A stretch of DNA of 64,000 bases from Flaccisagitta enflata (taxonomy: Eukaryota): NCBI GenBank assembly GCA_965153355.1, contig OZ231126.1:39680001-39744000 (forward strand). Direction: 5' to 3'. The notes beneath the pieces are model-generated. The model did not search any database, was not told the DNA's origin, and was given only the letters and a program-made list of their open reading frames with translations. This document shows, piece by piece, positions 9,734-59,991 of the stretch (its first letter is position 1; every line of letters starts with the position of its first letter). The position numbers were made by a program, and so were the translations under genes.

Positions 9734-11472
<1,739 letters not shown>

Positions 11473-12208
11473 CTGTACGTAAAAATAAATGAATGACGCA
11501 TTTAAACAAGTGACGCGGGGTCACAATATTGTTGCGGACGGGTGGGCAGGGGCAGCCAACCCCCATCCACACCCAGTGCCCCACCCAACCCCCTTCCAAC
11601 ACAGACACACACACAAAAAGCTTCTAAAATGTTTATTTTCCCACTTTCCGACTTGTGCTCATCAACGGTCCGACGGACCGACGGACCAACGGACAAAGCC
11701 TCTTATAGAGTTGCGTGTCCGCAACTAAAAACGAAAAAAAAATGCTAGTTTTGGATGAACTGACGAACCGATACAATGCCTTTCTCCACTAGACCAAATG
11801 CTAAACAACAAGTGACGCGGGGTTTACATTGTAAACTTTACAATATCATCGCGGACGGGTGGGCAGAGGCATACAACCCCCCGACGGACAAAGCCACTTA
11901 TAGAGTTGCGCGCAAATGGGTGTCCGCGATTAAAAAATTGCAGAAATATTTCTGCTCGCTCTAAATGACAAAACAAGGCCGGATACACGGCCACCAGTTG
12001 CGGACAGGTGGGCAGGGGCGGAAATGCGCGTTTTCATACTTTTCGACTCGTGCTCACGGAACGACGGACGGACCGACAGACGGACCGACGGACGGAACGA
12101 CGGACGGACAAAGGCTCTAAAAGAGTTGCGTGTCCGCAACTAAAAAGTTGAAAACCGATGGAAACAAGGCAAGAGCACTTAAATGAAATGGTTGGCGTCA
12201 AACCAATA

Positions 12209-12560
12209 CCGTATTTTTTCTAATTAGCGCCCCGGGCGCTTTCGAAATTGGAAAAAGATATTGTCATTTTACCCTCCAATTAGCGCCCCCTTTTGATGTA
12301 TGAGCAAGCTCTTTTCCTTTGTTTTTTATAATGAATGCTATTTAGAATATCAGAAATGTGAAATCAAATGTATCAAAGTAATATTTTTTGCTTGTTTTCT
12401 AATCAAGCCCTGATAAAGGACACTGAAATAAGCAAAATCATTCCTCTTTCAATGATTATTTTAATTTGTTTACTTTTTCATCTTCTCTCAAAACATTGTT
12501 CTGGGGAGCAAAAAGGGGGGGGCGTTAATTGGAGGGGGGCGATAAATGGAAAAAATACGG
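12209..12560. mobile_element. pogo/Tigger-like MITE in the zinc-finger gene intron
   Basis: TA|CCGTATTTTTTC ... GAAAAAATACGG|TA: terminal inverted repeats with TA duplication. Confidence 0.75.
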
Positions 12561-12586
12561 TATGCACGAATACATTTACACCCACC

Positions 12587-12685
<99 letters not shown>

Positions 12686-12689
12686 CTAC

Positions 12690-13071
12690 CTTTTGTAACG
12701 AAGGTCTTGGTGCACATTCTGCATTTCTCCAAATGTCTGACAGCGTTGTGCCTTTCGCGCCGATGGTATTCATACCCGAGCTGAGACAGAAATTCTTTCT
12801 TACAGATGGCGCATCGCAGTTTCGATCTTTCTGCGCCCGCGTGTACTTTGGTCACATGGTACTCCTGACCCTTCCGCGTCGTCTGAGTTTTACCGCAGAT
12901 TTTGCATGAAAATAGTCGACGTCGTTTTGGCGCAATTTTATTTCGCTTCTTCGTTTGAACGTGGCTTGTTTCGGATTCTGCTAAGGCAACATTGTCTTGT
13001 AACGCAGTTTCGTTCGTCGTCTTGAAAGCTTCCACAAAAGTCGCTTCTGACTTGATCGCTGCCGGCTCCAT
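12690..13071 (-). CDS. C2H2 zinc-finger protein, first coding exon (fingers 1-2 and start of finger 3); spliced product ~706 aa
   Basis: ATG at 13071 with an upstream in-frame stop. Fingers CKICGKTQTTRKGQEYHVTKVH and CAICKKEFLSQLGYEYHRRERH. Donor AAAG|GTAGAG at 12690/12689; the phase-1 join rebuilds CRMCTKTFVTKGGLEYHEKNVH. Additional upstream exons cannot be excluded. Confidence 0.85.
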
Positions 13072-13445
13072 CGCTTCCGCTTCGTATCGTTCGTTTTATA
13101 TCACCAGTAATTGATTTTTGCCAACCGGACAATGAAAGAAGTGCAACTAATTAAGAGATGAGAAAGGAAAGTAACGTCAACACGATTGTTGTATAAAATG
13201 AGATACACGAGCCGACAAAAAATGAGCTTTGTGAATAATACGGCCAATCTGAGAATATACCCAACACAGACAAGAGGGTCAGCCGGAGATCCGGGGATCG
13301 GCGATTGCTGATCGAGAATTGGCTTGTCTCCCACTACTGATATGAACCAAGTAACAGGTGACGCGACGGTCTGGTTCTCATCTTTAACGAAAAGAATTCC
13401 CACCACCTGACTTATCTATAAGAGAGAAAGAGAGAAAGAGAGAGA

Positions 13446-13642: not shown

Positions 13643-14611
13643 TAGATGATGATTTTGACGAGAATTCAATATGTTAAATAATCTTATCGACATACGGATG
13701 GTCAAAGCCACTTTCACGCTTTTCATTTTATAAGAACATGGATTTATTAAGTGAGCCTCAACGTTCTTATTTTTAGCCTCTTTTTAAAGCTCAAGCATTC
13801 TTAACATGTTCTTATTTTCGAATAAGATAATTTCTTTATAATCAGTTGTATATATTATTACAATAGTATATTTTAAGCAATTGTTAAAAAAAATTATTTT
13901 GTTATGAAAAATAAGATTGATATTTGATGAATAGTAAATTATCAATATAAAAATTATCATCAAAATATCAATCATTAAGGGTTTTTCATCTAATTTTATT
14001 AGTTTTTTTGATAAATCATATTTTAATCTTCATATTTGAGGTTCAGCATGTTCATATAATGTTCCTATTTTTTGCAAATTTCGGGACTATAAGAGTAATG
14101 TGAACGCGATGCGCGCGCGGCAGCGCAGAGACCGCATTGAATTGCCCGATTGGGCTTGTCAAAGGCCACTGATCTTACTGGCTCGAGAGGATTTTTTTTC
14201 TGCTTGAGAAGATGGACATGAAGGCATTTACATAAAGTTCTGTTAAGAGAAAGAAGCAAAAGTTATTGTAACGATTCGCGAAACAATTAATGACAAAACA
14301 ACGGGATCTTAAAAGTTGTTTTTTTTTTCTGTAAAAAGAAGAGAAAGACATACAAGCAAATAATGTGAGAAACGATATTGCAAATGGCAGAAATGAAGTA
14401 TCAGTGCAGTAGGTTTTGTTTTTTTTAAAACTAAATTGACACATTATCACAAAAGACAGGGGGGAAAGTATAATTTATACTTGTGGACAGAATTTTCTGT
14501 CTTTTATTTGTCTCAGGTTCCTCTTTTGCTCGATCTCTACTTCCTACTGCGTTTTTCCATCTCCTACCTTACTTTCTTGCTCTTCTTCCTCATCCACCCT
14601 TCCCCTTCCCC

Positions 14612-18062
<3,451 letters not shown>

Positions 18063-18360
18063 GTGAGACAGTTTGTCAATTGTTTGTTTCACTTTTTCTT
18101 TATCTACTCATTCGTTTTCTTTCCTTTCTTCTTTTCTTTCCTTTCTTCTTTTCTTTCATTCTGTCTTTCTTTCTTCCTCATTATCTGTCTTTCTTTGTCT
18201 TTCTTTCTGTCTTTCTTTCCGTCTTTCCTCCTTTCTCTCTTTCCTTCTTTCCTTGTTTCCTTGTTTCCTTTCTTTCTTTCTTTTTCTCTTTCTTTCTTTC
18301 TTTCTTTCTTTTCTTTCTTTTCTTTCTTTTCTTTCTTTTCTTTCTTTTCTTTCTTTCTTT

Positions 18361-18395
<35 letters not shown>

Positions 18396-18807
18396 GTCTT
18401 TCTTTCTGTCTTTCATTCTTTTCTTTCTTTCTTTCTGTCTTTTTTTCTTCTTTTCTTTCTTCCTTCCTTCTTTTCTTTCTTCCTTCCTTCCTTCCTTTTT
18501 TTCTTTCTTCCTTCCTTTCTTTCTTTCTATATTCCTTTTTCTTGTTTATATATTTTTTTCTTTCTTTCTTTCATATTTGTCTCTCTCTCTCTCTCTCTCT
18601 CTCTCGCGCGCTTGAGCGCGGTTAAAGTTGTTTCTTCTACTTATTCTTTTTTTCACATTTTTGCAATGCTTGTATCACTATCCCTGGCTCATTTTTTATG
18701 AAGGGGGTAGTCGTTATTTACTCCCTCTTGTAAGCGTTGAAAGAATAGCACAATATTACATTCAATTTAAATCTCCTAAAAAAATATGAAATTTACTTTT
18801 CTCTCAG

Positions 18808-19925
18808 ATTTCCGGACGATCGAGCCGAAGACTATGAAGCAGCTGCCGGTTACGAATCTCGCCGCGGAAAATTCTTTCGGGTCAATTGACATCGCCCTCC
18901 GTCGTCTTCTCACAACGAGCGTTCGCTGCGTCTCCGACCGTCTGATGATTCGGAGCGCCGGTCACGCCGTCTTTGGGACTTCTGCAGCAAGGGAAGTTAA
19001 GAAACTGCTACCTGAGGTTGAGGCAATTCAGAAACAATTTGACGATGACCAGAAGCAACAGAAAATTGCATCCATGACTGCCCTGACCGGAAAAGTTAGT
19101 CTGTACGAGAAAAAAAAGCTAGAGATTCTTGATGCTTGCAAGGAACGTGGAGGACCTTTTACTAAACCTGAAGATATTGACCAATTTCAGGCTAGATGCA
19201 TCGCGGAAGGAAGAAGTGTTGCGTACCAGAAAAAAGCTTACAAGGCCGAGGTCGTGCACAAGCGGGAGACGTTTACCAAATGTCCGAAGACCAACAACAA
19301 CTTCAGGATTCGATGTCAAACGACTAAAAAGGATTTGACTCCCCAACAGTTAGCCACTAATCTTAAGAGCCTTTTAAGCAACATTATGGCAATAGCCGAG
19401 GTACCCAACGCTGTAGTTAAAGATGCTATTCAGAAAGCCGTAGATGCTGCTGGAATTGATTTTATTTCAAACGAAAATATAGAGTCTGAAGCACAACCCA
19501 CAGTGGATGTGCAAGCACAGCCCTCAGTGGCCGTGCAACAAGCAGTAGCGGGTTTAACTAATACAACATGCTTAGTTGACAGTCCAAATCTTAAGGTTAT
19601 TAATGACCAATTTCTTTTAAACGATTTTGTTGCAATTGCAACGGTTGACTCCCAGGCCAAGAAAACCTGGAGTCTTGGTATGATTGATGATTACAATGGC
19701 AAAGACATCGCCTCCGTCAGTTTTTTTAAACCTGTACCTGGACGAATGGGCGAAAACCGAGTTGCTTTTTTTGGGCCCGAGGAAGAGGAGGAAATTGATG
19801 TCCCCACTAATTCTATTTTACCTCTTGCCCCAAGTGTTAATGAGAGTGTCCTCAATGGTGAACAGGTTTTCATCATTGAAAATCATGAGGAAATTGATGA
19901 GTTGGTTGAAAAAATTGAGGTGTAA
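18808..19925 (+). CDS. hAT-like transposase copy 1, exon 2 (putative catalytic Glu and C-terminal domains)
   Basis: Acceptor tttactttttctctcag|AT; phase-1 join gives NSIS-DFRT...PVTNLAAENSFGSID; stop at 19923-19925. Confidence 0.8.
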
Positions 19926-19942
19926 TCATCAATTATTGCATA

Positions 19943-20351
19943 CTACTCGACTCAATAAAAAAGCTGCATTTTCAAATGGCAAATTGTCATACTGAATTTC
20001 AAAAAAATAATCAAAAATCTTAGATCTTTAGAAAGCTCTTGAAAAGATCTTTTATTTGGCTCCAATCTGGCAATTCTAGCTTTATTCATTTAGAAATGGC
20101 ATGAGATTGAGTAGAAACATTGCCATAATCAGTTTGCAATCCCATTAAAAACTGAGCATTTTTACACATTAAAATATAACTTTGACAAGTTTTAGCTCCT
20201 AAACCATTTGAGATACAGATCTGGGATTGGTCTAAAATGAAAGAAAATTTAAAAACCTTTCACATCACTTCAATAGAATAATGTTCAAACAATTTCTTTT
20301 TCTTTTTTATCAACTCAAAATAGGGTGCGGCTTTTTTTTTGTGTCGCGTAG
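19943..20351. mobile_element. Tc1/mariner-type MITE nested just downstream of the transposase stop (duplicate at 28783-29191)
   Basis: TA|CTACTCGACTCAATAAAAAAGCTGCA ... TGCGGCTTTTTTTTTGTGTCGCGTAG|TA. Confidence 0.75.
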
Positions 20352-20883
20352 TATGTGATGGAATTTTGCATACAGGGTCAATAACTTTTTTCGGATTTGA
20401 TTTGCCAGTTTGATTTGCCAGATTAATTCGCCAGTTTTATTCACCAGTTATATTCACCAGCTTTATTCGCCAGTTATATTCGCTGGTTTGATCACTGGTT
20501 TGATTCACCAGTTTGAGTTGCTGGCTTGAGTAGATGGTTTGAGTCGCTGGTTTGAGTCACTGGTTTGAGTTGCTGGTTTGAATCACTGTCATTGATGTTT
20601 GTGAACGAATAATATTCATATCTTTGGCTAACTGAAATTTTTTAAATCTTTATCTCAGTCTCAGTCGTTTTTTCATGAAATTTTTCTTTCCTGATTTTTT
20701 TTTTGCAATTCAATTCAATTTTTTTTGCAATTCAATTCAAATTTTTTGCAATTATTCGAATCTTTGATTTTCAATTATTTTTTTTTGACTTGTCAATTTT
20801 TGATTTTCCCTAATATGTAATCATTCTTTAAATCCAATTTATAAGATTATTCGAATTTTTCAATTTTTTTTAATCTTGTGTAA

Positions 20884-21134
20884 TAAGCAGATGCGTAAGC
20901 GGTGAGAAGCGGTAATTCCACCGTGGATATCTCCCTGTGAATCCTCCTTACGGCTGCAGCTTGGGGGGCCATCTGTCTTAACAGTTTTTAGTTCTTAATT
21001 TTTTGTATCATGTATAGAAATTATAACAGATGCGTAAGCGGTAGGAGAGTGGTAACTACTACCGTGGATTTCCCCACTATTATTCCCTCTTATGGTTGCC
21101 ACCGGGAGGGCCATCTGTATTGAATATAATTTCT
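20884..21134 (+). ncRNA. Candidate structured RNA: two paralogous ~95-120-nt motifs (A 20884-20980, B 21016-21134) inside hAT copy 1
   Basis: Shared scaffold CAGATGCGTAAGCGGT...ACCGTGGAT...CTTAYGG...GGGCCATCTGT. Helices CAGATG/CATCTG, CGTAAG/CTTAYG and CGGTR/YACCG; G-U wobbles favour the + strand. No known family recognised. Confidence 0.4.
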
Positions 21135-21638
21135 TTGTGTGACCTAATCTTTTTTTCTCCCTCTAGTTGGTTCCAGAAGGTTCCGGATGATTCCGGAAAG
21201 TTCCTGGTGGTTCAGTATTTTCTTTACTTTATTCCAATTCCTTTTTGTTCTGGTTCACATCAACCTTATTGGTGATGGGGGTCTGCTGCAAAAGAATCTA
21301 TATCTATAAAGCAGATTTTTAGTGGTTCAGAAAATAAGTGAAGGTTGGTTTTTACGTTCTTTTAAAATTAGCCTTCACAAATTGTCTGCCTATTTGTTAT
21401 CATTTTTAGCTGTAGTTGCAGGCAATCAGCGACCCTAAACCGGTGGCCTTCAGCTAGCGGTCCAAACCCCGCAACATTAATTGGCTATCACCAAATGTTT
21501 TCAACTGTTTCAACCTTTTTTTCTATTCATCAGATAAAAACGTCTGGCTTGTGGAACCAATTTGGAATCGATCGATCGGTACGACATGACGCGATGTTCA
21601 TTCATTCTGGTTGAAAATCTCTAAAGCGTGCGGCCGCA

Positions 21639-21718
<80 letters not shown>

Positions 21719-24125
21719 TGATACTTTTACTGTGAAAGAATAGATGCCAAAATTTTTAATGCATGATACACTGAATCCCTTTAAATACTTCTAATCCCGA
21801 TTCATTCTGTGACTTGTCTAATTTAGGGTCTTTGGATCCATGCTTGTGGTCATCAGCTGCCGGGCGTACGACTATGCAAGAGTAACATGCGATCTAAAGA
21901 AAAACTGTCTCGGCCGAACATCTCTATCCACGTTGGCATCCTCAAAGCACAAAAAAAAAAAAAAAAAAAAAAAAATGGGCTCATTTCCCCGTAAATCAGT
22001 CTTTTCAGGGCAGTGTTACATTGAGTCTAAAGAATAACACATTTTCCGTTTTTCAAATTTGTGTTTGTTGGAATTTTACCTATCTTCGTCACTTTCCATT
22101 TTCTAGTCTCAGTTTGTAACAATCGCGTTAAAAAGTGTTAGGATACATATCTTTACCAATTCTTCTATCCGGATATGGTAACACCAGGTTCATTGTTGTC
22201 ATGCTATTAGCCTGCTTTGCTATTTCTCTGCTTGTCAGACTGATAAACATACTATTAATGTGTTTATGTACACTTAACGATAGAAATGCTTTGTTCAACT
22301 CAGTATCAGTTTTCATAAAAATGTTTTACTTCTTTTGCCGTGTAAATGCCAGATAGACACTCTGATTCACCAATCATGACATATAGAATTGCGTGCATAC
22401 TGTAAATAGGAACAAGTGACGCGGGGTCACAATATTGTTGTAGATGGGTCCCCATGACACACACATTCAAACACACAGACAATCACAACTGCAGCAAAAA
22501 AAATGCGCGTTTTTGCACGTTTTAACTCAATCTTCACGGACCAATGGACGGACTGACCGACCAATGGATGGATGGACAAAGCCTCCTACAGATTTGCGTG
22601 TCTGCAATTTTAAACAATATTAACTTAACAATTTTGATGAGCACATTATTAGCTAATCAAGTTAAACAAACGGAGCTTGCATCTCCACCCATTAGTTTGA
22701 TAGTTGTTGACGAAAAGCTCATTTGCATATTGCAGTAAATCGCAATTTCGTTTATTTACGCGTAGGATTAAATTTAGAAGTAAAAAGTCCAGTTGTGAAT
22801 GTCTAAGAATGCAATTGCCGATCGATTAGTACTATTCTTTTCAGGTTTGATTTTTAATTTTTTATTTCATTGACATTTGCAGTTATATTTTTTGAGCTCT
22901 TTTCACCCCTCGGTTGAAAACGGCCCATGTTTATAGACTACAATTTTTGAGTCATCCGGACGCATGCACACCTTGACTTTATCAGTCCTGACCAGCCTGG
23001 GTTTTTGTTAAAATGCAGTTTTTTTGTGTCAAACATCTAGCAAAAGGGCTTAGGTCGTCGTATTACCTCTGATATGGGGGCTAGGACCCCGATTACACTC
23101 TCATGGGCTATTACTAATAGTTATAGCCCATGAGGAGTGTAGCGTCCATATCAGGGTAAAAAAAGCGACATTGGTGTATTTTCTGTCTGTTTAGACAAAA
23201 AAAAGTGCATATTTAGCTAGGGCCATGCTGGTCAAGCACAATTTGTGTAATGGGTGTAACCCAATTTTTCTCCTTCGGCTCCGACGGAACCGCGATGCTC
23301 TTTTGTTGAAACCGAACTAGAAATCCAGGTGGCGAAGTGATGATTCATCCTTCTGTTTTCGTCTGGCCTCGATAATGTAAGTACCTCTTGCTGTTTTATT
23401 ACTATTATTTGTTGTAACAGATTAGTTTTGCGATATTTTTTTGCGTAAATGCGTCTAAATGTTATAGGAGACAATGTTAACTTTATCTTCAATAGTCATA
23501 ATCCGAGTTTTCTAACAATTTTACGCGTCTGTAAACAAGTGTTTAAAGGAAGATTGATACAATACAATACAATACAAAAAGAGCGTCGTTGCCCCTGCTC
23601 ACCCCAACATAGCTCCCTACTACCCATATGACTGCCCCTGCCCACATCACATTGTATTTGAGCCGGGGTTTTTGGGGCTTTTTTTTATGTTACTCAAGAA
23701 AGTTATGTGCAAAAATTTACATATGTGTGACTGAGTGCTGACTTTTCTGTCGCGTGTACGCAACTTTATAACCTGTTTTGTCGGTTGGTTGGTTGTTCCG
23801 TCCAAAATGCTTTTATGGGCGTTTCTTGCCATAGTACTTCTGCCATAGTTCTTGATTAGCCTATTCAATCACCGCACCTGCCCTTGAGTAGCCGTGTATC
23901 TGGGCAACACCTATAGAATTTTGTATTACCATTGGATGGTAAAATGCCTGATGAGTATTGTTACTATCTCATGATTTATCCCCCCCCCCCGTTTTTGTGG
24001 ACAGAATTTTCTGTCTTTTATTTGTCTCAGGTTCCTCTTTTGCTCGATCTCTACTTCCTACTGCGTTTTTCCATCTCCTACCTTACTTTCTTGCTCTTCT
24101 TCCTCATCCACCCTTCCCCTTCCCC

Positions 24126-26892
24126 ATGTCCTCCACCTCTCGGTTGGAGGCCCCCCCCTCCCCAGGGGAGCCTCTTCCTAACTTATCTTACCCTCCTTCC
24201 TCATCTCCCCCTCCTCCTTTCTCATCTCCCCCTCCTCCTGACTCATCTCCTCCTCCTCCCGACTCATCTCCCCCTCCTCCCGACTCATCTCCCCCTCCTC
24301 CCAACTCATCCCCCCCTCCTCTCAACTCATCCCCCCCTCCTCCCGACTCATCTCCCCCTCCCGCCTCATCTTCCTCTTCTCCTGACTCATCTCCCCCTCC
24401 TCTTGACTCATCTTCTCCTCTTCCTGACTCATCTCCTCCTGCTCCTGACTCGTCTCCTCTATCGCCGTCTTCCCAATCACCATCAACGCCGTCGCCATCG
24501 CCCAATCTTCCATCCAACGCCTCCAACGCCGGTCTTCAACTCCGCACTCGTGTCCTGGAAGCCGTGGATCCGCCAACGTCAGTCGCCCCACCAACAAAGA
24601 AGATCAAATCGCTGCGTGAGACTAAGGCAAGTTCAGTACACTCTTTATTGGAATTATCTTTCACTGAGCTAGATAGTTTTACCTTTCAACCGCCAGTCAG
24701 AAATGTTTTACCATTAATTCATCAAGTTGTGGGTCGATATCTTCATTTGTTACGTAAAAATGATGATCAACAGTATTACTCTGTTGAAGATGCGGCCCTC
24801 ACAATCCAAAACGAGATTTCTGATATTTGGAAAATGGCAAATATCCCAACAGTCTCTGTCAATACCCAAAAAAAAAAGGTTTTGGATTTACTTAAAGATT
24901 TCAAAAAAATGAATGGACACCAGACATCAGAGCATGCAACACGCAAATGGTTTCAAAATTCATACCAAAAGTTAGCCAAAGATATGAACAACATTTTTGA
25001 CATAAAGGCCGATGACAAAGTCATTGCGGCAAATTCACACTCTTTTCCTGTGCCATATGGTGAAAATGAACGGGAATTTTATCTTGACCAAAAAAATAAA
25101 ACGTTTTTGATGACTGTTGCTGGGGTAGATAGGAGGTGGGTACAGGAGGCCGAGGAGAAACGCGCAAAACAACTTCGAACCGAGGTCAAACGTCAACGGG
25201 AACGGGAACGACAACAGGAGTGGGAGCGTGAGAAGGCAGCACCGTCAACGGCAACGTCAGCGGAAATTGACGCCGCTATAGGACAAGATAAGTCTGAATT
25301 TGTGTGTGATGAAGGAGACAGTCGGAATGTTGATGTGGCTGATGATGACGATAATGGCATTGATTTTCAGCGATACACTTTGACAAGAAGTCGAAAGCGG
25401 CAGTTAGATAATGGTGAGGTTGAGGCACCTAAAAAGGTGTTGAATATCAGAGTTCGTGACTCATATACCATGATTCGTGACTGTGTTTATGATTTTCTTA
25501 TTGATTTTATGGCTAAAGGCACTGCCTCTAACCATCAAGCGGTCTTAGCAGCAAAGTTATTTGCCAAACATATGCTAGGTCAAGATTGGTTACTTCAAGA
25601 GGAAGCTAAAGAGAAGAGAGAGCAAGCAAAAAATAACAATGTTGATTTACCCGAAGATTTTTCTCTTTATGTTTTGCCATCAGACACCGCATTAAACCGG
25701 ATGCGTATTCAATATGCCCGCGCCGCCCAAAAAAACATCGGTGAAACCATTCTCAATCTTCCCGAAGGTGAAGCGGTGACAATGCACGGTGATTCTACAA
25801 CACGCAGCCATGTTGGTAAAATATTTACATCGCCGCTGACTGTTGGCAATCGTCTTCAGTTATCATTACCAGTACAAAAGTTAAATTTTGAAACAAAAAA
25901 CGATGTTGCGAAGGTGTATCAATGTCAATTTGGCATGTTAGGGGCACTCACAAAACAGCCTGCAAGGGCTCTTTTTGAAAAAATCCCTTTTTTCATGGGC
26001 GATTCTGCCAAAGAGATGAACGATTTCCTTGCGATCGTTGGCCAAAATTTACAGTCAACGCATTTACCGTATCGTTTGAAATGCGTTCTTCATACAATAC
26101 TTGGGTGGACTGAGACTGAGATAAAGGTAATTTCTGCTCTTGAACAGTCTATTGGTCCAGATAAACTGTATGGAGAATCCCGGTGTCACGATGCCTCAAA
26201 CGTTTCAAAATCTACTATCAATGCCATTTTGAAACTTATCTCTCCCCAATTCCAGCATAAACCATACAATTTAAAAAAAGAATTCGATATTTTACTTGTG
26301 GAATTGGGTGGGAATACAAAAAATCTTGCTTTTCCATTACGATCTCATCGGTTTGGTGCTCTTGAAATGGCCGCTGCTATAGTCATCCACCACTGGGATG
26401 AAATTGTCATCCTATGCGAAAAAGCAGAGAACCGAAATGATCTGATCATTTTTTGCAGGACCACCATGGAGTGTGTATTTGTCAAGATAGTCATTCTTAG
26501 TTTTGCTTTGATTGGCCTTTTTCTCATTGAGCCATATCGCGAATTGGTCTCATCATCAAATCATCTTGACTTATGCCAGTCCTTCCCCAATCTCTTTTCA
26601 GATTTGGCGAGAAGCAAGGTGGTCGCGAACGGAATCATCAACTTTTCGCCAGACGCCATACCAACATTAGCACCATCATTCAAAAAAGTAATCGAAAAAA
26701 AGGTTTATGCTAATCAAGTTGTTGAGTCTTTGCAGGTTACCGTAGACAGTTTGGACGACAACAGTTTGGAGATGCTGCGCAACATTCTCGGACTCATCAG
26801 CCACTACTGCGCCATCACCTTGCAACGCCAACGGGGGGAGGAGTACGATTTCGCCGCCAACAAAGAACCCAACTCTTCAAATTCTATCTCGG
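24126..26892 (+). CDS. hAT-like DDE transposase copy 2, exon 1 (Pro/Ser-rich N-terminus, helical N-domain, first two catalytic Asp and CxxH motif); spliced product ~1294 aa
   Basis: Uninterrupted frame. N-terminal LP..QV...IW.MANIP...FDI...FYLDQ pattern as I recall from hATm/hATx transposases. Motifs HGDSTT (D1), MGDSA (D2), CVLH (CxxH), SHRFG. Donor G|GTGAGA at 26892/26893. Confidence 0.85.
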
Positions 26893-27260
26893 GTGAGACA
26901 GTTTGTCAATTGTTTGTTTCACTTTTTCTTTATCTACTCATTCGTTTTCTCTCCTTTCTTCTTTTCTTTCCTTTCTTCTTTTCTTTCATTCTGTCTTTCT
27001 TTCTTCCTCATTATCTGTCTTTCTTTGTCTTTCTTTCTGTCTTTCTTTCCGTCTTTCCTCCTTTCTCTCTTTCCTTCTTTCCTTCTTTCCTTCTTTCTTT
27101 CTTTCCTTCTTTCCTTCTTTCTTTCTTTCTTCTTTTCTTTCCTTCTTTCTTTCTTTCCTTCTTTCCTTCTTTCTTTCTTTCCTTCTTTCCTTCTTTCCTT
27201 CTTTCTTTCTTTCTTTCTTTCTTTTCTTTCTTTTCTTTCTTTTCTTTCTTTTCTTTCTTT

Positions 27261-27311
<51 letters not shown>

Positions 27312-27401
27312 GTCTTTCTTTCTGTCTTTCTTCCTTCCTTTCTTTCTTTCTATATTCCTTTTTCTTGTTTATATATTTTTTTCTTTCTTTCTTTCATATT
27401 T

Positions 27402-27447
<46 letters not shown>

Positions 27448-27647
27448 GCGCTTGAGCGCGGTTAAAGTTGTTTCTTCTACTTATTCTTTTTTTCACATTT
27501 TTGCAATGCTTGTATCACTATCCCTGGCTCATTTTTTATGAAGGGGGTAGTCGTTATTTACTCCCTCTTGTAAGCGTTGAAAGAATAGCACAATATTACA
27601 TTCAATTTAAATCTCCTAAAAAAATATGAAATTTACTTTTCTCTCAG

Positions 27648-28765
27648 ATTTCCGGACGATCGAGCCGAAGACTATGAAGCAGCTGCCGGTTACAAATCTC
27701 GCCGCGGAAAATTCTTTCGGGTCAATTGACATCGCCCTCCGTCGTCTTCTCACAACGAGCGTTCGCTGCGTCTCCGACCGTCTGATGATTCGGAGCGCCG
27801 GTCACGCCGTCTTTGGGACTTCTGCAGCAAGGGAAGTTAAGAAACTGCTACCTGAGGTTGAGGCAATTCAGAAACAATTTGACGATGACCAGAAGCAACA
27901 GAAAATTGCATCCATGACTGCCCTGACCGGAAAAGTTAGTCTGTACGAGAAAAAAAAGCTAGAGATTCTTGATGCTTGCAAGGAACATGGAGGGCCCTTC
28001 ACTAAACCTGAAGACATTGACCATTTTCAGGCTAGATGCATCGCTGAGGGACGAAGTGTTGCGTACCAGAAAAAAGCTTACAAGGCCGAGGTCGTGCACA
28101 AGCGGGAGACATTTACCAAATGTCCGAAGACCAACAACAACTTCAGGATTCGTTGTCAAACGACTAAAAAGGATTTGACTCCCCAACAGTTAGCTACTAA
28201 TCTTAAGAGCCTTTTAAGCAACATTATGGCAATAGCCGAGGTACCCAACGCTGTAGTTAAAGATGCTATTCAGAAAGCCGTAGATGCTGCTGGAATTGAT
28301 TTTATTTCAAACGAAAATATAGAGTCTGAAGCACAACCCACAGTGGATGTGCAAGCACAGCCCTCAGTGGCTGTGCAACAAGCAGTAGCGGGTTTAACTA
28401 ATACAACATGCTTAGTTGACAGTCCAAATCTTAAGGTTATTAATGACCAATTTCTTTTAAACGATTTTGTTGCAATTGCAACGGTTGACTCCCAGGCCAA
28501 GAAAACCTGGAGTCTTGGTATGATTGATGATTACAATGGCAAAGACATCGCCTCCGTCAGTTTTTTTAAACCTGTACCTGGACGAATGGGCGAAAACCGA
28601 GTTGCTTTTTTTGGGCCCGAGGAAGAGGAGGAAATTGATGTCCCCACTAATTCTATTTTACCTCTTGCCCCAAGTGTTAATGAGAGTGTCCTCAATGGTG
28701 AACAGGTTTTCATCATTGAAAATCATGAGGAAATTGATGAGTTGGTTGAAAAAATTGAGGTGTAA
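27648..28765 (+). CDS. hAT-like DDE transposase copy 2, exon 2
   Basis: Acceptor ctctcag|AT at 27647/27648; TNLAAENSFG (catalytic E motif of TNxxxExxFG type); GGPF region; beta-rich C-terminal domain; exon lengths 2767+1118 nt = 1295 codons. Confidence 0.85.
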
Positions 28766-29714
28766 TCATCAATTATTGCATACTACTCGACTCAATAAAA
28801 AAGCTGCATTTTCAAATGGCAAATTGTCATACTGAATTTCAAAAAAATAATCAAAAATCTTAGATCTTTAGAAAGCTCTTGAAAAGATCTTTTATTTGGC
28901 TCCAATCTGGCAATTCTAGCTTTATTCATTTAGAAATGGCATGAGATTGAGTAGAAACATTGCCATAATCAGTTTGCAATCCCATTAAAAAATGAGCATT
29001 TTTACACATTAAAACATAACTTTGACAAGTTTTAGCTCCTAAACCATTTGAGATACAGATCTGGGATTGGTCTAAAATGAAAGAAAATTTAAAAACCTTT
29101 CACATCACTTCAATAGAATAATGTTCAAACAATTTCTTTTTCTTTTTTATCAACTCAAAATAGGGTGCGGCTTTTTTTTTGTGTCGCGTAGTATGTGATG
29201 GAATTTTGCATACAGGGTCAATAACTTTTTTCGGATTTGATTTGCCAGTTTGATTTGCCAGATTAATTCGCCAGTTTTATTCACCAGTTATATTCACCAG
29301 CTTTATTCGCCAGTTATATTCGCTGGTTTGATCACTGGTTTGATTCACCAGTTTGAGTTGCTGGCTTGAGTAGATGGTTTGAGTCGCTGGTTTGAGTCAC
29401 TGGTTTGAGTTGCTGGTTTGAATCACTGTCATTGATGTTTGTGAACGAATAATATTCATATCTTTGGCTAACTGAAATTTTTTAAATCTTTATCTCAGTC
29501 TCAGTCGTTTTTTCATGAAATTTTTCTTTCCTGATTTTTTTTTTGCAATTCAATTCAATTTTTTTTGCAATTCAATTCAAATTTTTTGTAATTATTCGAA
29601 TCTTTGAATTTCAATTATTTTTTGTTCACTTGTCAATTTTTGATTTTCCCTAATATGTAATCATTCTAATTTATAAAATTTTTCGAATTTTTCAATTTTT
29701 TTTAATCTTGTGTA

Positions 29715-29966
29715 TTAAGCAGATGCGTAAGCGGTGAGAAGCGGTAATTCCACCGTGGATATCTCCCTGTGAATCCTCCTTACGGCTGCAGCTTGGGGGG
29801 CCATCTGTCTTAACAGTTTTTAGTTCTTAATTTTTTGTATCATGTATAGAAATTATAACAGATGCGTAAGCGGTAGGAGAGTGGTAACTACTACCGTGGA
29901 TTTCCCTACTATTATTCCCTCTTATGGTTGCCACCGGGAGGGCCATCTGTATTGAATATAATTTCT
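29715..29966 (+). ncRNA. Candidate structured RNA pair (A' 29715-29813, B' 29848-29966) inside hAT copy 2
   Basis: Same motifs as in copy 1. The changes relative to copy 1 preserve or extend pairing: CCAC->CTAC gives G-U, and TTAAG extends the closing stem. Confidence 0.4.
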
Positions 29967-30470
29967 TTGTGTGACCTAATCTTTTTTTCTCCCTCTAGTT
30001 GGTTCCAGAAGGTTCCGGATGATTCCGGAAAGTTCCTGGTGGTTCAGTATTTTCTTTACTTTATTCCAATTCCTTTTTGTTCTGGTTCACATCAACCTTA
30101 TTGGTGATGGGGGTCTGCTGCAAAAGAATCTATATCTATAAAGCAGATTTTTAGTGGTTCAGAAAATAAGTGAAGGTTGGTTTTTACGTTCTTTTAAAAT
30201 TAGCCTTCACAAATTGTCTGCCTATTTGTTATTATTGTTAGCTGTAGTTGCAGGCAATCAGCGACCCTTAACCGGTGGCCTTCAGCTAGCGGTCCAAACC
30301 CCGCAACATTAATTGGCTATCACCAAATGTTTTCAACTGTTTCAACCTTTTTTTCTATTCATCAGATAAAAACGTCTGGCTTGTGGAACCAATTTGGAAT
30401 CGATCGATCGGTACGACATGACGCGATGTTCATTCATTCTGGTTGAAAATCTCTAAAGCGTGCGGCCGCA

Positions 30471-30548
<78 letters not shown>

Positions 30549-32211
30549 TGATACTTTTACTGTGAAAGAATAGATGCCAAAGTTTTTAATGCATGATACA
30601 CTGAATCCCTTTAAATACTTCTAATCCCGATTCATTCTGTGACTTGTCTAATTTAGGGTCTTTGGATCCATGCTTGTGGTCATCAGCTGCCGGGCGTACG
30701 ACTATGCAAGAGTAACATGCGATCTAAAGAAAAACTGTCTCGGCCGAACATCTCTATCCACGTTGGCATCCTCAAAGCACAAAAAAAAAAAAAAAAAAAA
30801 AATGGGCTCATTTCCCCGTAAATCAGTCTTTTCAGGGCAGTGTTACATTGAGTCTAAAGAATAACACATTTTCCGTTTTTCAAATTTGTGTTTGTTGGAA
30901 TTTTACCTATCTTCGTCACTTTCCATTTTCTAGTCTCAGTTTGTAACAATTGCGTTAAAAAGTGTTAGGATACATATCTTTACCAATTCTTCTATCCGGA
31001 TATGGTAACACCAGGTTCATTGTTGTCATGCTATTAGCTTGCTTTGCTATTTCTCTGATTGTCAGACTGATAAACATACTATTAATGTGTTTATGTACAC
31101 TTAACGATAGAAATGCTTTGTTCAACTCAGTATCAGTTTTCATAAAAATGTTTTACTTCTTTTGCCGTGTAAATGCCAGATAGACACTCTGATTCACCAA
31201 TCATGACATATAGAATTGCGTGCATACTGTAAATAGGAACAAGTGACGCGGGGTCACAATATTGTTGTAGATGGGTCCCCATGACACACACATTCAAACA
31301 CACAGACAATCACAACTGCAGCAAAAAAAATGCGCGTTTTTGCACGTTTTAACTCAATCTTCACGGACCAATGGACGGACTGACCGACCAATGGATGGAT
31401 GGACAAAGCCTCCTACAGATTTGCGTGTCTGCAATTTTAAACAATATTAACTTAACAATTTTGATGAGCACATTATTAGCTAATCAAGTTAAACAAACGG
31501 TGCTTGCATCTCCACCCATTAGTTTGATAGTTGTTGACGAAAAGCTCATTTGCATATTGCAGTAAATCGCAATTTCGTTTATTTACGCGTAGGATTAAAT
31601 TTAGAAGTAAAAAGTCCAGTTGTGAATGTCTAAGAATGCAATTGCCGATCGATTAGTACTATTCTTTTCAGGTTTGATTTTTAATTTTTTATTTCATTGA
31701 CATTTGCAGTTATATTTTTTGAGCTCTTTTCACCCCTCGGTTGAAAACGGCCCATGTTTATAGACTACAATTTTTGAGTCATCCGGACGCATGCACACCT
31801 TGACTTTATCAGTCCTGACCAGCCTGGGTTTTTGTTAAAATGCAGTTTTTTTGTGTCAAACATCTAGCAAAAGGGCTTAGGTCGTCGTATTACCTCTGAT
31901 ATGGGGGCTAGGACCCCGATTACACTCTCATGGGCTATTACTAGTATAAAGTATAAAAGTATAAACACCTTACTGCTGCTCTTGAAAAGCCATCGGGTTG
32001 AAGTTTCGAGGTGTCACTGTACTTTTGTTAGATCTGTAGGACTTCATTGTTGCATGATGTCGCTTCCAACGAGCGTTGCAAAAGCGCAAACGATTTTCAA
32101 AACAAAAGACGTGGCCATACAGGAGTAAGTTGTGTTTGGCATTGTCAAATGACCCAGATCGCTCGGGGATGTAGAGTGATAACCGTGACCGAGAGACCGA
32201 CCGACTTCAGT

Positions 32212-45219: not shown

Positions 45220-45252
45220 CCATTGAGTAGTTTCTTTCGTTTACTCAAGCCG

Positions 45253-46975
45253 TTTTTAGTCGCGTGCACGCGACTCTACAACCCGCTCCGTCGGTCCGTC
45301 GGTCGGTCGGTCCGTCGGTCCGTCCGTCCGTAACACTTTGCTTTTTTTCGTCTTTTTGGGTTGTCTGGAGTTATTTTGAGTCATTTTTTTGTTGTTTTTG
45401 GGAATTATTGGTTGCTTTTAGTCATTTTTTGTTATTTTTGGTCATTTTGGTCATTTTGGTCATTTTGGTCATTTTGGTCATTTTGGTCATTTTTGGTCAT
45501 TTTTGGTCATTTTTGATTATTTTTGATTATTTTTGGTCATTTTTGGTCATTTTTGGTCATTTTTGGTCATTTTTGGTCATTTTTGGTCATTTTTGGTCAT
45601 TTTTGGTCATTTTTGGTCATTTTTGGTCATTTTTGGTCATTTTGGTCATTTTGGTCATTTTGGTCATTTTTGGTCGTTTTTGGTCATTTTTGGTCATTTT
45701 TGGTCATTTTTGGTCATTTTGGTCATTTTTGGTCATTTTTGGTCATTTTTGGTCATTTTGATCATTTTGATCATTTTTGTTCATTTTTGGTCAATTTTGG
45801 TCAATTTTGGTTATTTTTGGTCATTTTGGTCATTTTGGTCATTTTGGTCATTTTTGATCATTTTTGGTCATTTTTGGTCATTTTTGGTCGTTTTCGGTCG
45901 TTTTTGGTCATTTTTGTCATTTTTGGTCATCTTTGGTCATAAAGTCTGCTGGTTAAAGTCTGCTGGGTAAAGTCTGATGGTGAAAGTCTGCTGGTTTAAA
46001 TCTGCTGGTTTAAATCTGCTGGTTTAAGTCTGCTGGTTTAAATCTAATGGGTTAAGTCTGCTGGTTAAAGTCTGCTGGTTTAAGTCTGCTGGGTTAAGTC
46101 TGCTGGTTTAAGTCTGCTGGTTTAAATCTAATGGTTTAAGTCTGCTGGTCTAATGGTTTAAGTCTGCTGGTTTAAGTCTGCTGGTTAAAATGATATTAAA
46201 GATAAGTATGGTTTAAGTCTGGTTTAAGTCTGGTTTAAGTCTGGTTGAAGTATGGTTTAAGCATGGTTTAAGTCTGGTTAAGTCTGGTTTAAGTCTGGTT
46301 TAAGTCTGGTTTAAGACTGGTTCATGTCTGATTTATGTCTGGTTTAGGTCTGGGTTAGGTCTGGTTTAGGTCTGGTGTATGTCTGGTTTTTGTCTGGTTT
46401 ATGTTTGATTTAGGTCTGATTTAGGTCTGGTTTTGGTCTGGTTTTGGTCTGGTTTTGGTTTGGTTTCATTCTGGTTTGAGTCTGGTTTGAGTCTGGTTTG
46501 AGTCTGGTTTGAGTCTGGTTTGAGTCTGGTTTGATTCTGGTTTGAGCCTGGTTTGAGCCTGGTTTGAGCCTGGTTTGAGCCTGGTTTGAGCCTGGTTTGA
46601 GCCTGGTTTAAGTCTGGTTTAAGTCTGGTTTGAGTCTGGTTTGAGTCTGGTTTAAGTCTGGTTTGAGACTGGTTTGAGTCTGGTTTGAGTCTGGATTGAG
46701 TCTGGTTTGAGTCTGGTTTGAGTCTGGCTTAAATCTGGTTTATGTCTGGTTTATGTCTGGTTTATGTCTGGTTTATGTCTGATTTAGGTCTGTTTTTGGT
46801 CTGGTTTAATTTTGGTTTGAGTCTCGTTTGAGTCTGGTTTAAGTCTTGTTTGAGTCTGGTTTCGGTCTGTTTTGGGTTGCGTTTAAGTCTGATTTTCGAT
46901 AAAAAGATACAATAAGGAGTCAGGTCAGTTCAGTTATTTTTGTCCTGCACGCGACTTATAGGTGTTGGCCTTGTT
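45253..46975 (+). mobile_element. HINE family 1 element with expanded internal satellite arrays (9/10-mer TTTT(T)GGTCA, 14-mer AAGTCTGCTGGTTT, 11-mer (A/G)AGTCTGGTTT)
   Basis: Intact HINE ends (TTTTTAGTCGCGTGCACGCGACT ... GCACGCGACTTATAGGTGTTGGCCTTGTT) enclose three consecutive arrays. Confidence 0.8.
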
Positions 46976-50271: not shown

Positions 50272-50401
50272 CGATACAGAGAATCAGAGAGGTAGAGTGA
50301 GAGTGAGACCAAGAATGAGAAGATTGAGTGGAGACAAAGAGGAGGAAGTCGAAAATGAGGATTTATGACGGCGCGAAATGGACGAGACGCGGACGGGAAG
50401 T

Positions 50402-51530
50402 TGTTCGCAGCATCTGCAGTCCCATGCTACACGACTTTACAAGTCACTTTCATCGTCCATCCGTCGCTCAGCCTACTCATATGGTTCACAGCATCTGCAG
50501 TACCAGGCTACACGACTATACAAGTCACTTTCATCGTCCATCCGTCAATCAGCCTACTCATATGGCTCGCAGCATCTGCAGTTCCATGCTACACGACTAC
50601 ACAAGTCACTTTCATCGTCCATCCGTCGATCAGCCTACTCACATGGTTCGCAGCATCTGCAGTCCCATGCTACACGACTACACAAGTCACTTTCATCGTC
50701 CATCCGTCGATCAGCCTACTCACATGGTTCGCAGCATCTGCAGTCCCATGCTACACGACTACACAAGTCACTTTCATCGTCCATCCGTCGATCAGCCTAC
50801 TCACATGGTTCGCAGCATCTGCAGTCCCATGCTACACGACTACACAAGTCACTTTCATCGTCCATCCGTCGATCAGCCTACTCACATGGTTCGCAGCATC
50901 TGCAGTCCCAGGCTACACGACTACACGAGTCACTTTCATCGTCCATCCATCGATCAGTCTACTCATATGGTTTGCAGCATCTGCAGTCCCAGGCTACCCG
51001 ACTTTACAAGTCACTTTCATCGTCCATCTGTCAATCAGTATACTCATATGGTTCGCAGCATCTGCAGTCCCAGGCTACACTACTTTACAAGTCACTTTCA
51101 TCGTCCATCCGTCAATCAGTCTACTCATATGGTTTGCAGCATCTGCAGTCCCAGGCTACCCGACTTTACAAGTCACTTTCATCGTCCATCTGTCAATCAG
51201 TCTACTCATATGGTTCGCAGCATCTGCAGTCCCAGGCTACACGACTTTACAAGTCACTTTCATCGTCCATCCGGCGATCAGCCTACTCATATGGTTCGCA
51301 GCATCTGCAGTCCCACGCTAAATGACTACACAAGTCACTTTCATCGTCCATCCGGCGATCAGCCTACTCATATGGTTCGCAGCATCTGCAGTCCCAGGCT
51401 ACACGACTTTACAAGTCACTTTCATCGTCCATCCGGCGATCAGCCTACTCATATGGTTCGCAGCATCTGCAGTCCCACGCTAAACGACTACACAAGTCAC
51501 TTTCATCGTCCATCCGGCGATCAGCCTACC
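50402..51530 (+). repeat. 81-bp minisatellite, ~14 copies
   Basis: Unit GGTTCGCAGCATCTGCAGTCCCA(T/G)GCTACACGACT...CAGCCTACTCA(C/T)AT; 27-aa periodicity in all three forward frames. Confidence 0.95.
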
Positions 51531-52275
51531 ATGTGTCTACTCATGTGGTAAATAGGTCTGTTGGTCAGTCCTTCGGCCCATTGGCCGGTCCAACAAAAAT
51601 GTTCGTCTTTCGAGTCGTTTGTTGTCCTGGTGCTGAGGACCACCGAATTTAGATTTTAAGGTCCACGTCCAACTACTGTCAAAATTGAATGCTTTAGTTT
51701 TATTTTTCGTCCTTTTATTTTTCTACTTATTAAGTTGTTTGGGTGAATTAAGGGCGTTGGTGACGAGCAGGGGAAATATACTTTTTCAACAGGCCAAGAT
51801 GAGAACTGTTTAGGTTGTCTAGGTGGATTTAGGGGGTTGTTGACGAGCTGGTGAAATAAACTTTGTCAAGAGGCCAAAATAAGAACTGTGTAGGTGGATT
51901 TAGGGGGTGTGTGACGAGCTGGTCAAATAAACCTCGTCGAGTGGCCAAAATAAGCACCGTGCGTGATATTGCCGCGCCTCTAATTCGGTAGGTGGGATGG
52001 CTCTGGTATTTGAATTGTAATTTGGAAGTGAGAGGGGAAGCGGAAGCGGAAGCGGAAGCAGAAGCGGAAGCGGAAGCGTGGCCCGTTGGAGCGACACAAA
52101 TAAACCACTTCCGCTTCCGCGGCTCAAGACATTGAAACGTTGAGAGTAACTTTTCTTTTAAGAAAATTCAAATCCATTCTTTTGTTAAAACTTTTCCCAT
52201 TTGCATCGAAAAGTAGTTAAACAAAACATCAAGAATAATCCGGCAGTAGTTTCAGCGCAACATTCGCGTCACCAC

Positions 52276-57757: not shown

Positions 57758-59192
57758 AAACAAGGCCAACACCTATAAGTCGCGTGCGAGACATAAAAAA
57801 CTGAATTGACCTGACTGCTTATTATATTGTATCTTTTTAATCAACATGACTGAATAGGGAGAAATATAACAAGGCCGGATACACGGCCAATACCAGTTGC
57901 GGACGGGTGGGCAGGGGCGGAAATGCGCATTTTCACACTTTCCAACTCAATCACCACGGACCGACGGACCATCGGACAGACGGACGGACGGACCAACGGA
58001 CGGATGGACGAACGGACGGACAAAGCCTCTTATAGAGTTGCGTGTCCGCAACTAAAAAATTAATAAAATGATTTAGTTGACTAGATTGACATGAATGAAT
58101 TGATGAATAAATCAGCTTAATGAGGTATTGGAGGCCATGGAAACCCACCCAATTACAGGCCGGGACCACTAGAAAAAGTGGTGACTTGTAATTGAGTCAA
58201 ATTAATCAACTCTATCAACCCAATCAATGAAAAATGACTAAACCAGACTTTGACCAGCAGACTTTAACCAGCAGACCTTAACCAGCAGACTTTAACCAGC
58301 AGACTTAAACCAGCAGACTTAAACCAGCAGACTTAAACCAGCAGACTTAAACCAGCAGACTTAAACCAGCAGACTTAAACCAGCAGACTTAAACCAGCAG
58401 ACTTAAACCAGCAGACTTAAACCAGCAGACTTAAACCAACAGACTTAAACCAGCATACTTAAACCAGCAGACTTAAACCGGCAGACTTATATCAGCAAAC
58501 TTAAACCAGCAGATTTAAACCAGCAGACTTAAACCAGCAGACTTAAACCAGCCAACATAAACCAGCCGACTTAAACCAGCCGACTTAAACCAGCAGACTT
58601 AAACCAGCAGACTTAAACCAGCAGACTTAAACCAGCAGACTTAAACCAGCAGACTTAAACCAGCAGACTTAACCCAGCAGACTTGAAATGACATAAATGA
58701 CCAAAACATACCAAAAAACATAAATGACCAAAACATACCAAAAAACATAAATGACCACAAAACCAAAAAAAAAACAAAAAAAAACAAACCAAAAAACCAA
58801 AAAACCAAAAAACCAAAAACCAAAAACCAAGAAACCAACAAACATGAATGACCAAAACATACCAAAAAACCATGTTAAATGACCAAAAATGACCTGAAAT
58901 GTCACAAAATGACTTAAAATGACTTAAAACTACTTCAAATGCCCAAAAACGAAACAAATGACTTAAATGATCAAAGTGACGTAAATGATCAAAAATGACC
59001 AAAAATGACTAAAAGCAACCAAAAATGACCAAAAGCGACCAAGAACAACAAAACAACGACTCAAAATAACACCAGACGACCTTAAATGACCAAAAACGAC
59101 GCAAAATAGCAAAGTGTTACCGACAGACCGACCGATGGACGGATGGACCGACCGACGGAGCGGATTGTAGAGTCACGTGCACGCGACTAAAA
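57758..59192 (-). mobile_element. HINE of the same subfamily as 45253-46975, with a ~30-copy 14-mer array and a nested HINE at 57868-58058
   Basis: Its ends are reverse complements of those of the 45-47 kb copy; (AAACCAGCAGACTT)n at ~58250-58685. Confidence 0.78.
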
Positions 59193-59991
59193 AGCGGGCC
59201 GGATACACGGCCACCAAAGTCGCGTGCAGGTGGGTAGGGGCGGCAATGAAATAGGCCGACCAAATATTGGGGCAGGAGCAGTGATGAAAAAACTGCCAGT
59301 AAACACTAACAAAGCGAAGTGTTACCAACCGACTGACTGAATGACCTTGCGTCCGACAAACGAAGTGGGACATAGAGTCACGTGCACGCGACTAAAAGAT
59401 AAATATGCAAAATGTCTGTTTTTTTTTCATGCGGTTTACATGATGAAGATTCAAGGTTCAACTACAAACTGTCAAATATACAAGCACACAAACAAACAAA
59501 AAAATAATCAATCAAACAAACAAATAAATAAACAAACAAATAAAAAAAAAAACAAATAGCCAGTGGAAGTCTGGGTGGTAGTGCAGTGTTGTCCATCTTT
59601 CATTTTAACAAGCGAGTTTATCAATCAAGGTCTTATATGCTTTGTCCGCTTATCTGTTTGTCGTGGGTCCAAAATAATCGAGTAATAAAAGTGAAGAGTG
59701 AGGGTGTGGAGGGGGGTTGCACGCCTCTGCCCATCCATCCGCGAAGATGTTGTGACCCAGCGTTACTTGTTATAAAAAATAAAACTTCATCAAATCTAAC
59801 AAGTTCATGATTTGGTTATGAATGCTCGACCAAACATCAAAATATCGCAAGATCGCAAGATCGCAAAGAACAACAGTTTCAATGAAAGTTGACTTTTTAT
59901 TTGATTAAGAAAAGCAAAAACGACAAAAGAAATCTTGAAGAAAAGTCGTTTCACAAATTAACAAACAGAAGGCGAAAAAGGCTGAGCAGGG

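Follow-up and report, generated by a model that had tools for sequence, protein, structure and literature searches.

The Locus and Its Transposon

The stretch of DNA that we analyzed (64 kb; hereafter, the window) holds two copies of an hAT-like transposon lying tail to head and, within each copy, a pair of short GC-rich modules, A and B, which are the subject of this report (Table 1). Positions 15454-23116 match 24269-31943 at 97.7% identity, and 14481-14762 match 23995-24276. A 17-bp terminal inverted repeat of the pattern TAGTWATAGCCCATGAG is found at 23118 (+ strand), 23116 (- strand), and 31943 (- strand), compared with 0.13 occurrences expected by chance, and the inverted similarity of the element ends extends for ~90 nt. 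Because terminal repeats are present at both of its ends, copy 2 is full length.

At 23100-23134, a single base separates the right terminal repeat of copy 1 from the left one of copy 2, the two lying face to face. No 8-bp target-site duplication was seen at the full copy, which is flanked by different sequences on its two sides, on the left by the end of copy 1 and 1 extra nt and on the right by unrelated DNA. Such a tail-to-head arrangement of copies without a target duplication suggests aberrant transposition or recombination, not two clean insertions.

Table 1. Positions of the features discussed in the text, numbered from the first letter of the window.
Feature	Position	Strand	Remarks
Element copy 1	14481..23116	+	Without the first ~877 bp; right terminal repeat at 23100-23116
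Transposase exon 1	15401..18052	+	Open frame to 18625; alignment with P0006, an uninterrupted relative, stops at ~18052
Transposase exon 2	18840..19925	+	Open frame from 18786; homology starts at ~18840; stop at 19925
Nested very-high-copy repeat	19942..20330 (approximate ends)	.	Between the stop and the modules
13-nt minisatellite arrays	20396..20581	.	Upstream of the modules
Module A, element copy 1	20888..20976	+	89-nt GC-rich unit with CAGATG...CATCTG ends; 90.9 bits with covariance model R1
Module B plus flanking 10-bp AT-rich inverted repeat	21016..21134	+	21016-21025 pairs with 21125-21134 and lengthens the closing stem
Module B, element copy 1	21027..21116	+	90-nt paralogue of A, 78% identical; 117 bits with R1
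Full-length hAT-like transposon, copy 2	23118..31943	+	8826 bp; terminal inverted repeats at 23118-23134 and 31927-31943
Module A, element copy 2	29720..29808	+	Same as module A of copy 1, no difference
Module B, element copy 2	29859..29948	+	Single C-to-T difference, at the equivalent of 21075

Several other features of the window lie outside the two elements. On the - strand, open frames with C2H2 zinc-finger motifs occur at 9734-11623 and 12478-13095, interrupted by poly-Asn and (TG)n runs; the 12478-13095 frame matches Pfam zf-C2H2_4 (E 2.5e-5), and these frames are probably a host gene adjoining the transposon. At 50322-51593 lies an 81-nt tandem repeat of 13 copies that are 90 to 95% alike, open in three + frames and encoding a His-, Ser-, and Pro-rich repeat of 27 residues. 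Finally, the minisatellites at 45250-46319 and 58249-59197 (11-nt and 14-nt periods) are inverted related copies with 75 to 90% identity, ~12 kb apart.

A Transposase with a Predicted Hermes-Like Fold

The two long open frames of copy 1 align, in order, to one uninterrupted relative of 1130 amino acids: residues 136-884 of the first frame correspond to residues 19-768 of the relative, and residues 19-374 of the second correspond to its residues 779-1121. The frames are two exons of one intact transposase gene. The intron (18055-18835) is filled with a microsatellite of the CTT/TTTC type, which gives rise to long spurious open frames in several frames and strands.

No Pfam family matched either transposase open reading frame (ORF), no hAT-related Pfam family was found in any of six aligned members (five close relatives, all from metagenome assemblies, and the query), and Pfam returned nothing for the long distant relatives scanned (9 of 9). 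Sequence-profile searches of the PDB gave a single match at chance level (E 0.57), and a language-model atlas gave weak leads only (0.76 to 0.78), to FAM200-ZBED5, DUF4371, and DUF659, which are hAT-derived families. The family of the transposase (15848-19925) is nonetheless large, with 962 representatives at E<=1e-3; a search of JGI metagenome and viral contigs found no relative of the transposase. We conclude that the family is recognized by no Pfam model and seems to be without a curated profile.

AlphaFold run on the 6-sequence alignment gave an unusable model (pLDDT 49), and a 29-sequence alignment of the core gave an AF2 model with a pLDDT of 92.2. A Foldseek comparison of the latter with the PDB gave 12 matches (E<=0.001), of which all 11 that are listed are Hermes transposase chains (E 3e-5 to 2e-4; probability 1.0), with TM-scores of only 0.29 to 0.41. 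The predicted structure is consistent with membership in the hAT group, with an RNase-H-like DDE core carrying a large alpha-helical insertion, as in Hermes. When the carrier is set beside Hermes and other hAT elements, the predicted catalytic-core fold is the same and so are the short terminal inverted repeats, which begin with TAG; the carrier differs in having no Pfam hAT domain, no sequence-level match in the PDB, and no 8-bp target-site duplication that could be seen. A preliminary description of this DNA had assigned the modules to an hAT transposon, and the fold matches together with the 17-bp terminal inverted repeats support that assignment, even though the Pfam domains and the target duplication were not found.

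Two Diverged Modules Behind the Transposase Gene

A and B agree at 69 of 89/90 positions and are offset by three separate indels of 1 nt each. Their alignment score was not equaled in any of 500 shuffles (z 10.8), and their GC content is 52 to 57%, compared with 18 to 20% in the surroundings just upstream. These values bear out the earlier observation of two GC-rich islands that share a scaffold, and the strings quoted in the preliminary description are present in the sequence where it had placed them. Blocks of 16, 9, and 10 nt are conserved exactly, at the junction-proximal parts of the fold described below. The 16-mer that opens both modules occurs at exactly four sites in the window (20888, 21027, 29720, and 29859), with 0.21 occurrences expected by chance.

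The modules are present twice more because a unit of ~8.8 kb has been duplicated, so that the second pair is not independent of the first; around the modules, element copies 1 and 2 differ at 2 of 301 columns. The independent sequences for tests of structure are, as a consequence, two in number (A and B). At the site at which module B of copy 2 departs from that of copy 1, T is the letter in all three of the read runs that cover it (X2, X7, and X1).

How widespread are the modules? A covariance model of the modules (R1), a check that the preliminary description had proposed, recovered just the four known copies when the window was searched with filters off, the next best hit having an E value of 0.44, and blastn-short searches of the window with the modules returned 9- to 11-nt chance words only. 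The motif pattern was absent from the viral, JGI metagenome, and GTDB genome contigs searched, and a literature search with words of the module sequence gave only unrelated guide or primer matches. Coding on the - strand was also considered and rejected: one - frame is open in both modules, yet the peptides share only their ends, since the three 1-nt indels shift the frame, and the constraint is therefore not one of coding.

Upstream of the modules, the 50-nt flanks of A and B resemble each other weakly (35/50; P 0.046), so a plain tandem duplication of 139 nt is enough to account for the origin of the pair. Could the pair then be a neutral relic, that is, a segment of ~139 nt of the repeat-rich noncoding region duplicated in tandem, with a GC-rich, partly palindromic core that can still be aligned and no RNA function, the apparent conservation of which reflects chance and a choice of region made by eye? 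The flank likeness is in keeping with such an origin, as is the makeup of the region, which is a patchwork of tandem repeats: the 13-nt arrays, a 22-nt array just upstream of the modules, (GA)37 downstream, and period-like units at 21160-21215. Arguing against a neutral relic are the retention of the module GC content amid such AT-rich surroundings and the position of the exactly conserved blocks, right beside the junction.

The Modules in Their Surroundings

Module A begins 963 nt after the transposase stop, in agreement with the distance of about 1 kb given in the preliminary description, and ~390 nt of this interval is the nested high-copy repeat. The same repeat recurs in copy 2 at 28775-29165 and is strongly overrepresented in marine metagenome and metatranscriptome runs too; in run X2, the depth of its contig is ~1e6, compared with ~300 over the ORF. 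The repeat probably represents a SINE- or MITE-like element of the organism. The only AATAAA after the stop (19954) lies inside this repeat, ~930 nt before A. On the downstream side of the modules, a GC-rich island at 21400-21480 (52 to 55% GC) has an X2 depth ~3 times that of the neighboring bins.

Are A and B themselves insertions of this kind? Read depth in run X2 is 333 to 364 over A and up to 847 over B; because these values are close to those for the rest of the element, the modules belong to the element and not to a nested high-copy insertion. We likewise rejected a MITE or other nested small transposon as their source, given the absence of a direct repeat in the flanks, the host-like read depth, and the absence of further copies in the window.

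A different possibility is that the pairing of module arms is selected in DNA. The modules would then be palindromes bound by the transposase or by some protein of the host, or tiny foldback or MITE remnants, with arms that co-vary through the same bound protein. The inverted CAGATG/CATCTG ends and the repeated RGYGGTR/ACCG words of each module have the look of such sites, and B is enclosed by a 10-bp inverted repeat with the same symmetry on either strand. However, A and B lie outside the subterminal regions of the element (~2 kb from its right end and 6.6 kb from its left end), and the ends of the element show no enrichment of module words. Nor do target-site duplications flank the modules, the inverted ends of which are just 6 bp long, and there is no excess of copies by read depth, unlike the case for the adjoining nested repeat. 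The modules also contain G-U pairs that worsen the fold of the - strand, which would not be predicted for a double-stranded DNA site. For these reasons, we regard a DNA-level element as quite unlikely.

A Shared Four-Way Junction

When A, B, and the copy 2 version of B are folded jointly with RNAalifold, the result is a nested four-way junction of 26 pairs in which 97.4% of the cells are paired and 3 of the 26 pairs have changed on both sides. Its closing stem is 5 to 6 bp long (CAGAUG/CAUCUG) and encloses three hairpins: the first is CGGUG.../...CACCG, the second is weak, and the third joins a C-rich strand to the 3' G-run, with a small inner stem-loop between them. Substitutions affect 20 columns (including column 49, which differs only in B of copy 2), 12 of them in stems. 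Six of these 12 form three compensatory pairs (17/34, 62/81, and 70/75), four stay paired through G-U, and the remaining two fall where the pair is missing in A only; no pair formed in both modules is broken by substitution. Two of the changes had been singled out in the preliminary description, one from G-C to A-U (CGGTG/CACCG versus CGGTAG/CTACCG) and one from G-C to G-U (CTTACG versus CTTATG), and both are real.

Is this more pairing than two diverging copies would be expected to keep? When the alignment columns were shuffled, 1.2% of 1000 + strand shuffles folded as well (z -2.62), and three or more compensations appeared in 4.9% of them; the signal on the - strand is weaker (z -1.75), and it is because of the G-U pairs that the fold favors the + strand. 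In simulations of neutral mutation that reproduced the observed 19 substitutions (14 of them transitions) and 3 indels, with 1000 runs per direction, the consensus energy had P values of 0.012 and 0.017, and the structure conservation index of 0.84 exceeded null means of 0.58 and 0.57 (P 0.008 and 0.014). Taken singly, the modules behave differently: A is no more stable than its shuffles (z -1.11), and B has z-scores of -3.16 on the + strand and -3.96 on the - strand. That B does equally well on the - strand is explained by its symmetric flank inverted repeat, which supplies most of the stability. The P values of ~0.01 are inflated, because the region was picked by eye for its foldability, and the fold was derived from the same two sequences on which it was tested. 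A and B have retained their shared fold to a somewhat greater degree than would be predicted from neutral divergence (P ~0.01 to 0.05), a result that is suggestive and not decisive.

This result bears directly on the neutral relic. The ordinary stability of A when folded alone speaks for a duplication free of function, as does statistical support at only P 0.01 to 0.05, uncorrected for the choice of region. Such a duplication accounts less readily for the fact that none of the 12 stem substitutions disrupts a pair formed in both modules, for three pairs being compensated on both sides, and for a structure conservation index well above the neutral mean. On balance, we consider a neutral relic to be a serious possibility, although one that we would not call probable.

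Outer Stems and the Question of a Pseudoknot

The preliminary description had proposed two additions to this scaffold. The first was a set of outer stems, unrelated in sequence, pairing in both modules. For B, this proposal is upheld: its 10-bp flank inverted repeat has a P value of 0.003 (5000 shuffles), and none of 2680 local control positions reached even 9 bp. For A, it is not, the 4-bp flank pairing TAAG/CTTA being at chance level (P 0.77 or more). The flank stem of B is unrelated in sequence to the flanks of A.

The second was a pseudoknot. The model of that description (P1, CGUAAG/CUUACG, the first hairpin, and pairing of the G-run with an upstream C-rich strand) can indeed be drawn, with 97.1% of cells paired and 3 pairs changed on both sides. 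The nested hairpin explains the same G-run, however, and is energetically better for B, for which the RNAalifold nested fold has an energy of -25.9 kcal/mol, compared with -8.9 kcal/mol for the nested part of the pseudoknot model; for A, the corresponding values are similar (-14.7 and -13.4 kcal/mol). At position 81 of the G-run (G in A and A in B), the partner is a U at column 62, as the nested model has it, and position 81 is also matched by the U at column 49 in B of copy 2. Since position 81 is matched at both columns, alternative pairings are possible. We conclude that a pseudoknot between the C-rich strand and the G-run is possible but not required, as the nested hairpin accounts for the G-run.

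Comparison with Known RNA Classes

A search of the Rfam 15 covariance models, which had been suggested as a check on the modules, returned no family at gathering score anywhere in the window. At E values up to 10, there were five weak, unrelated matches in 20700-21300 and one in 29680-29990, and the searches of these stretches (601 nt and 311 nt) gave no ribozyme, tRNA, or snRNA family. The hammerhead, HDV-like, twister, twister-sister, pistol, hatchet, and hairpin ribozymes were all without a match at the same threshold. Fitting the modules by eye to the patterns of HDV-like and hammerhead ribozymes, C/D boxes, SECIS elements, spliced leaders, and group II domain V also yielded nothing.

A four-way junction of ~90 nt, built from a closing stem plus three hairpins, invites comparison with tRNA-like and mascRNA molecules and with the tRNA-derived heads of SINEs, and the loop of the first hairpin of B contains what we take to be an A-box-like word. 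The junction linkers of the modules differ in length from those of tRNA, no T-loop motif is present, and neither a tRNA nor a mascRNA family of Rfam matches. A tRNA or tRNA-derived origin was rejected after ARAGORN reported 0 genes in the window at default thresholds; relaxed to 60%, it gave just a pseudo-hit of 33% GC in the spacer at 20955-21027, off A and B. The preliminary description had found no fit to ribozyme or tRNA consensus sequences, and the Rfam and ARAGORN searches concur for both modules.

Self-cleaving ribozymes of mobile elements, which are known mostly from retroelements and satellites, offer a second comparison. Like A and B, they are small and structured, with conserved junction nucleotides, and they are sometimes pseudoknotted; A and B differ from them in having no covariance-model match at E up to 10. 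A literature search turned up no report of a ribozyme or comparable RNA carried by hAT elements.

Do A and B represent small RNAs in their own right? As stand-alone molecules, they would be carried as cargo and made from a unit of their own or as a processed product, for example, as Pol III-type transcripts or as self-cleaving ribozymes of an undescribed class. The sharp, identical borders of the modules fit this proposal, and their conserved, unpaired junction nucleotides and variable stems would be the pattern of catalytic or protein-bound RNAs. T-runs follow A (at 20985, 9 nt beyond its end) and B (at 21150), although such runs are common in the surrounding AT-rich DNA. Against the proposal stand the searches: no Rfam family reached its gathering score in the window, neither ribozymes nor tRNAs or snRNAs were among the matches to the two stretches at E up to 10, and ARAGORN gave nothing beyond the poor spacer match at relaxed thresholds. 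We think it unlikely that the modules are stand-alone RNAs.

A third comparison concerns ENE triple-helix elements, which sit behind the transposase gene; the rice hAT element TWIFB1 has a double ENE, according to a review (PMC13541005). TWIFB1 and the present element are alike in having a structured element behind an hAT transposase gene, and a tandem two-domain arrangement is possible in both. The statement in the preliminary description that hAT elements are not known to carry such RNAs was accordingly too strong, and its claim to novelty was overstated, in light of what that review records for TWIFB1. What defines an ENE is an internal loop of two U-rich strands, set around a stem, by which an A-rich tract or poly(A) tail is clamped, whereas A and B are GC-rich four-way junctions. 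No T-run of 4 or more falls inside 20888-20976 or 21027-21116, and no A-run of 4 or more is present in 20801-21200. We rejected an ENE identity for A and B because they are without U-rich loops and have no ENE-type Rfam match.

Transcription Data

In polyA RNA sequencing of the organism (run X24, of which ~6% was read), neither the modules nor the transposase ORF received any reads (0 each), and all 3 reads that mapped were in the nested repeat; polyA libraries would miss small RNAs. In a metatranscriptome, one contig of 175 nt spans 20904-21078 (depth 6; 2 differences), and a second covers 21141-21569. The depths of these contigs are close to those in the DNA metagenome run X1, so they could be DNA carry-over. 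The lack of polyA reads on the modules and the ambiguity of the metatranscriptome contig are both in line with a neutral relic.

A Proposed Model

The observations outlined above are compatible with a model in which an old tandem duplication of a module of ~90 nt gave rise to A and B, which have since diverged; the module would have been kept able to fold as a four-way junction on the + (transposase-sense) strand. We posit that the molecule that folds would be RNA and that the module would belong to the sense transcript of the noncoding 3' region of the element. There, it would act in cis, after transcription. Judging from structured elements that lie behind the transposase genes of other transposons, such a module would most likely help to form the 3' end of the transposon transcript, to stabilize that transcript, or to export it. 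The preliminary description had likewise proposed a selected, structured RNA. What has stood is the fold, kept beyond the neutral expectation at P ~0.01; the pseudoknot has turned out to be unneeded, and no known ribozyme family matches. As candidates for a structured RNA, A and B have a moderate standing, and we tentatively favor a selected structure that acts in cis on the transcript of the element, while rating it at somewhat less than an even chance.

A more far-reaching version of the idea can also be entertained. Could A and B represent an undescribed class of four-way-junction RNA of ~90 nt, carried in tandem and serving as a ribozyme, a processing signal, or an RNA bound by the transposase? 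Such an RNA might switch between nested and pseudoknotted states, a thought prompted by position 81 of the G-run, which co-varies with both of the C-rich strands (columns 49 and 62), and its carrier would be a Pfam-less family with a Hermes fold and hundreds of uncharacterized relatives. We consider a new class of this sort improbable.

Implications

Independently of the RNA question, a transposase family with a predicted Hermes fold that lies outside Pfam is useful for transposon annotation. As for the modules, if their fold is not under selection, then what we see is an ordinary tandem duplication internal to the noncoding region of a transposon. If the fold is selected, then A and B would be a second kind of RNA element behind an hAT transposase gene, structurally unrelated to the ENE triple helices and standing beside them, and the first such element in a marine planktonic eukaryote. 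Were this true, DNA transposons would lean on posttranscriptional RNA structures more widely than thought.
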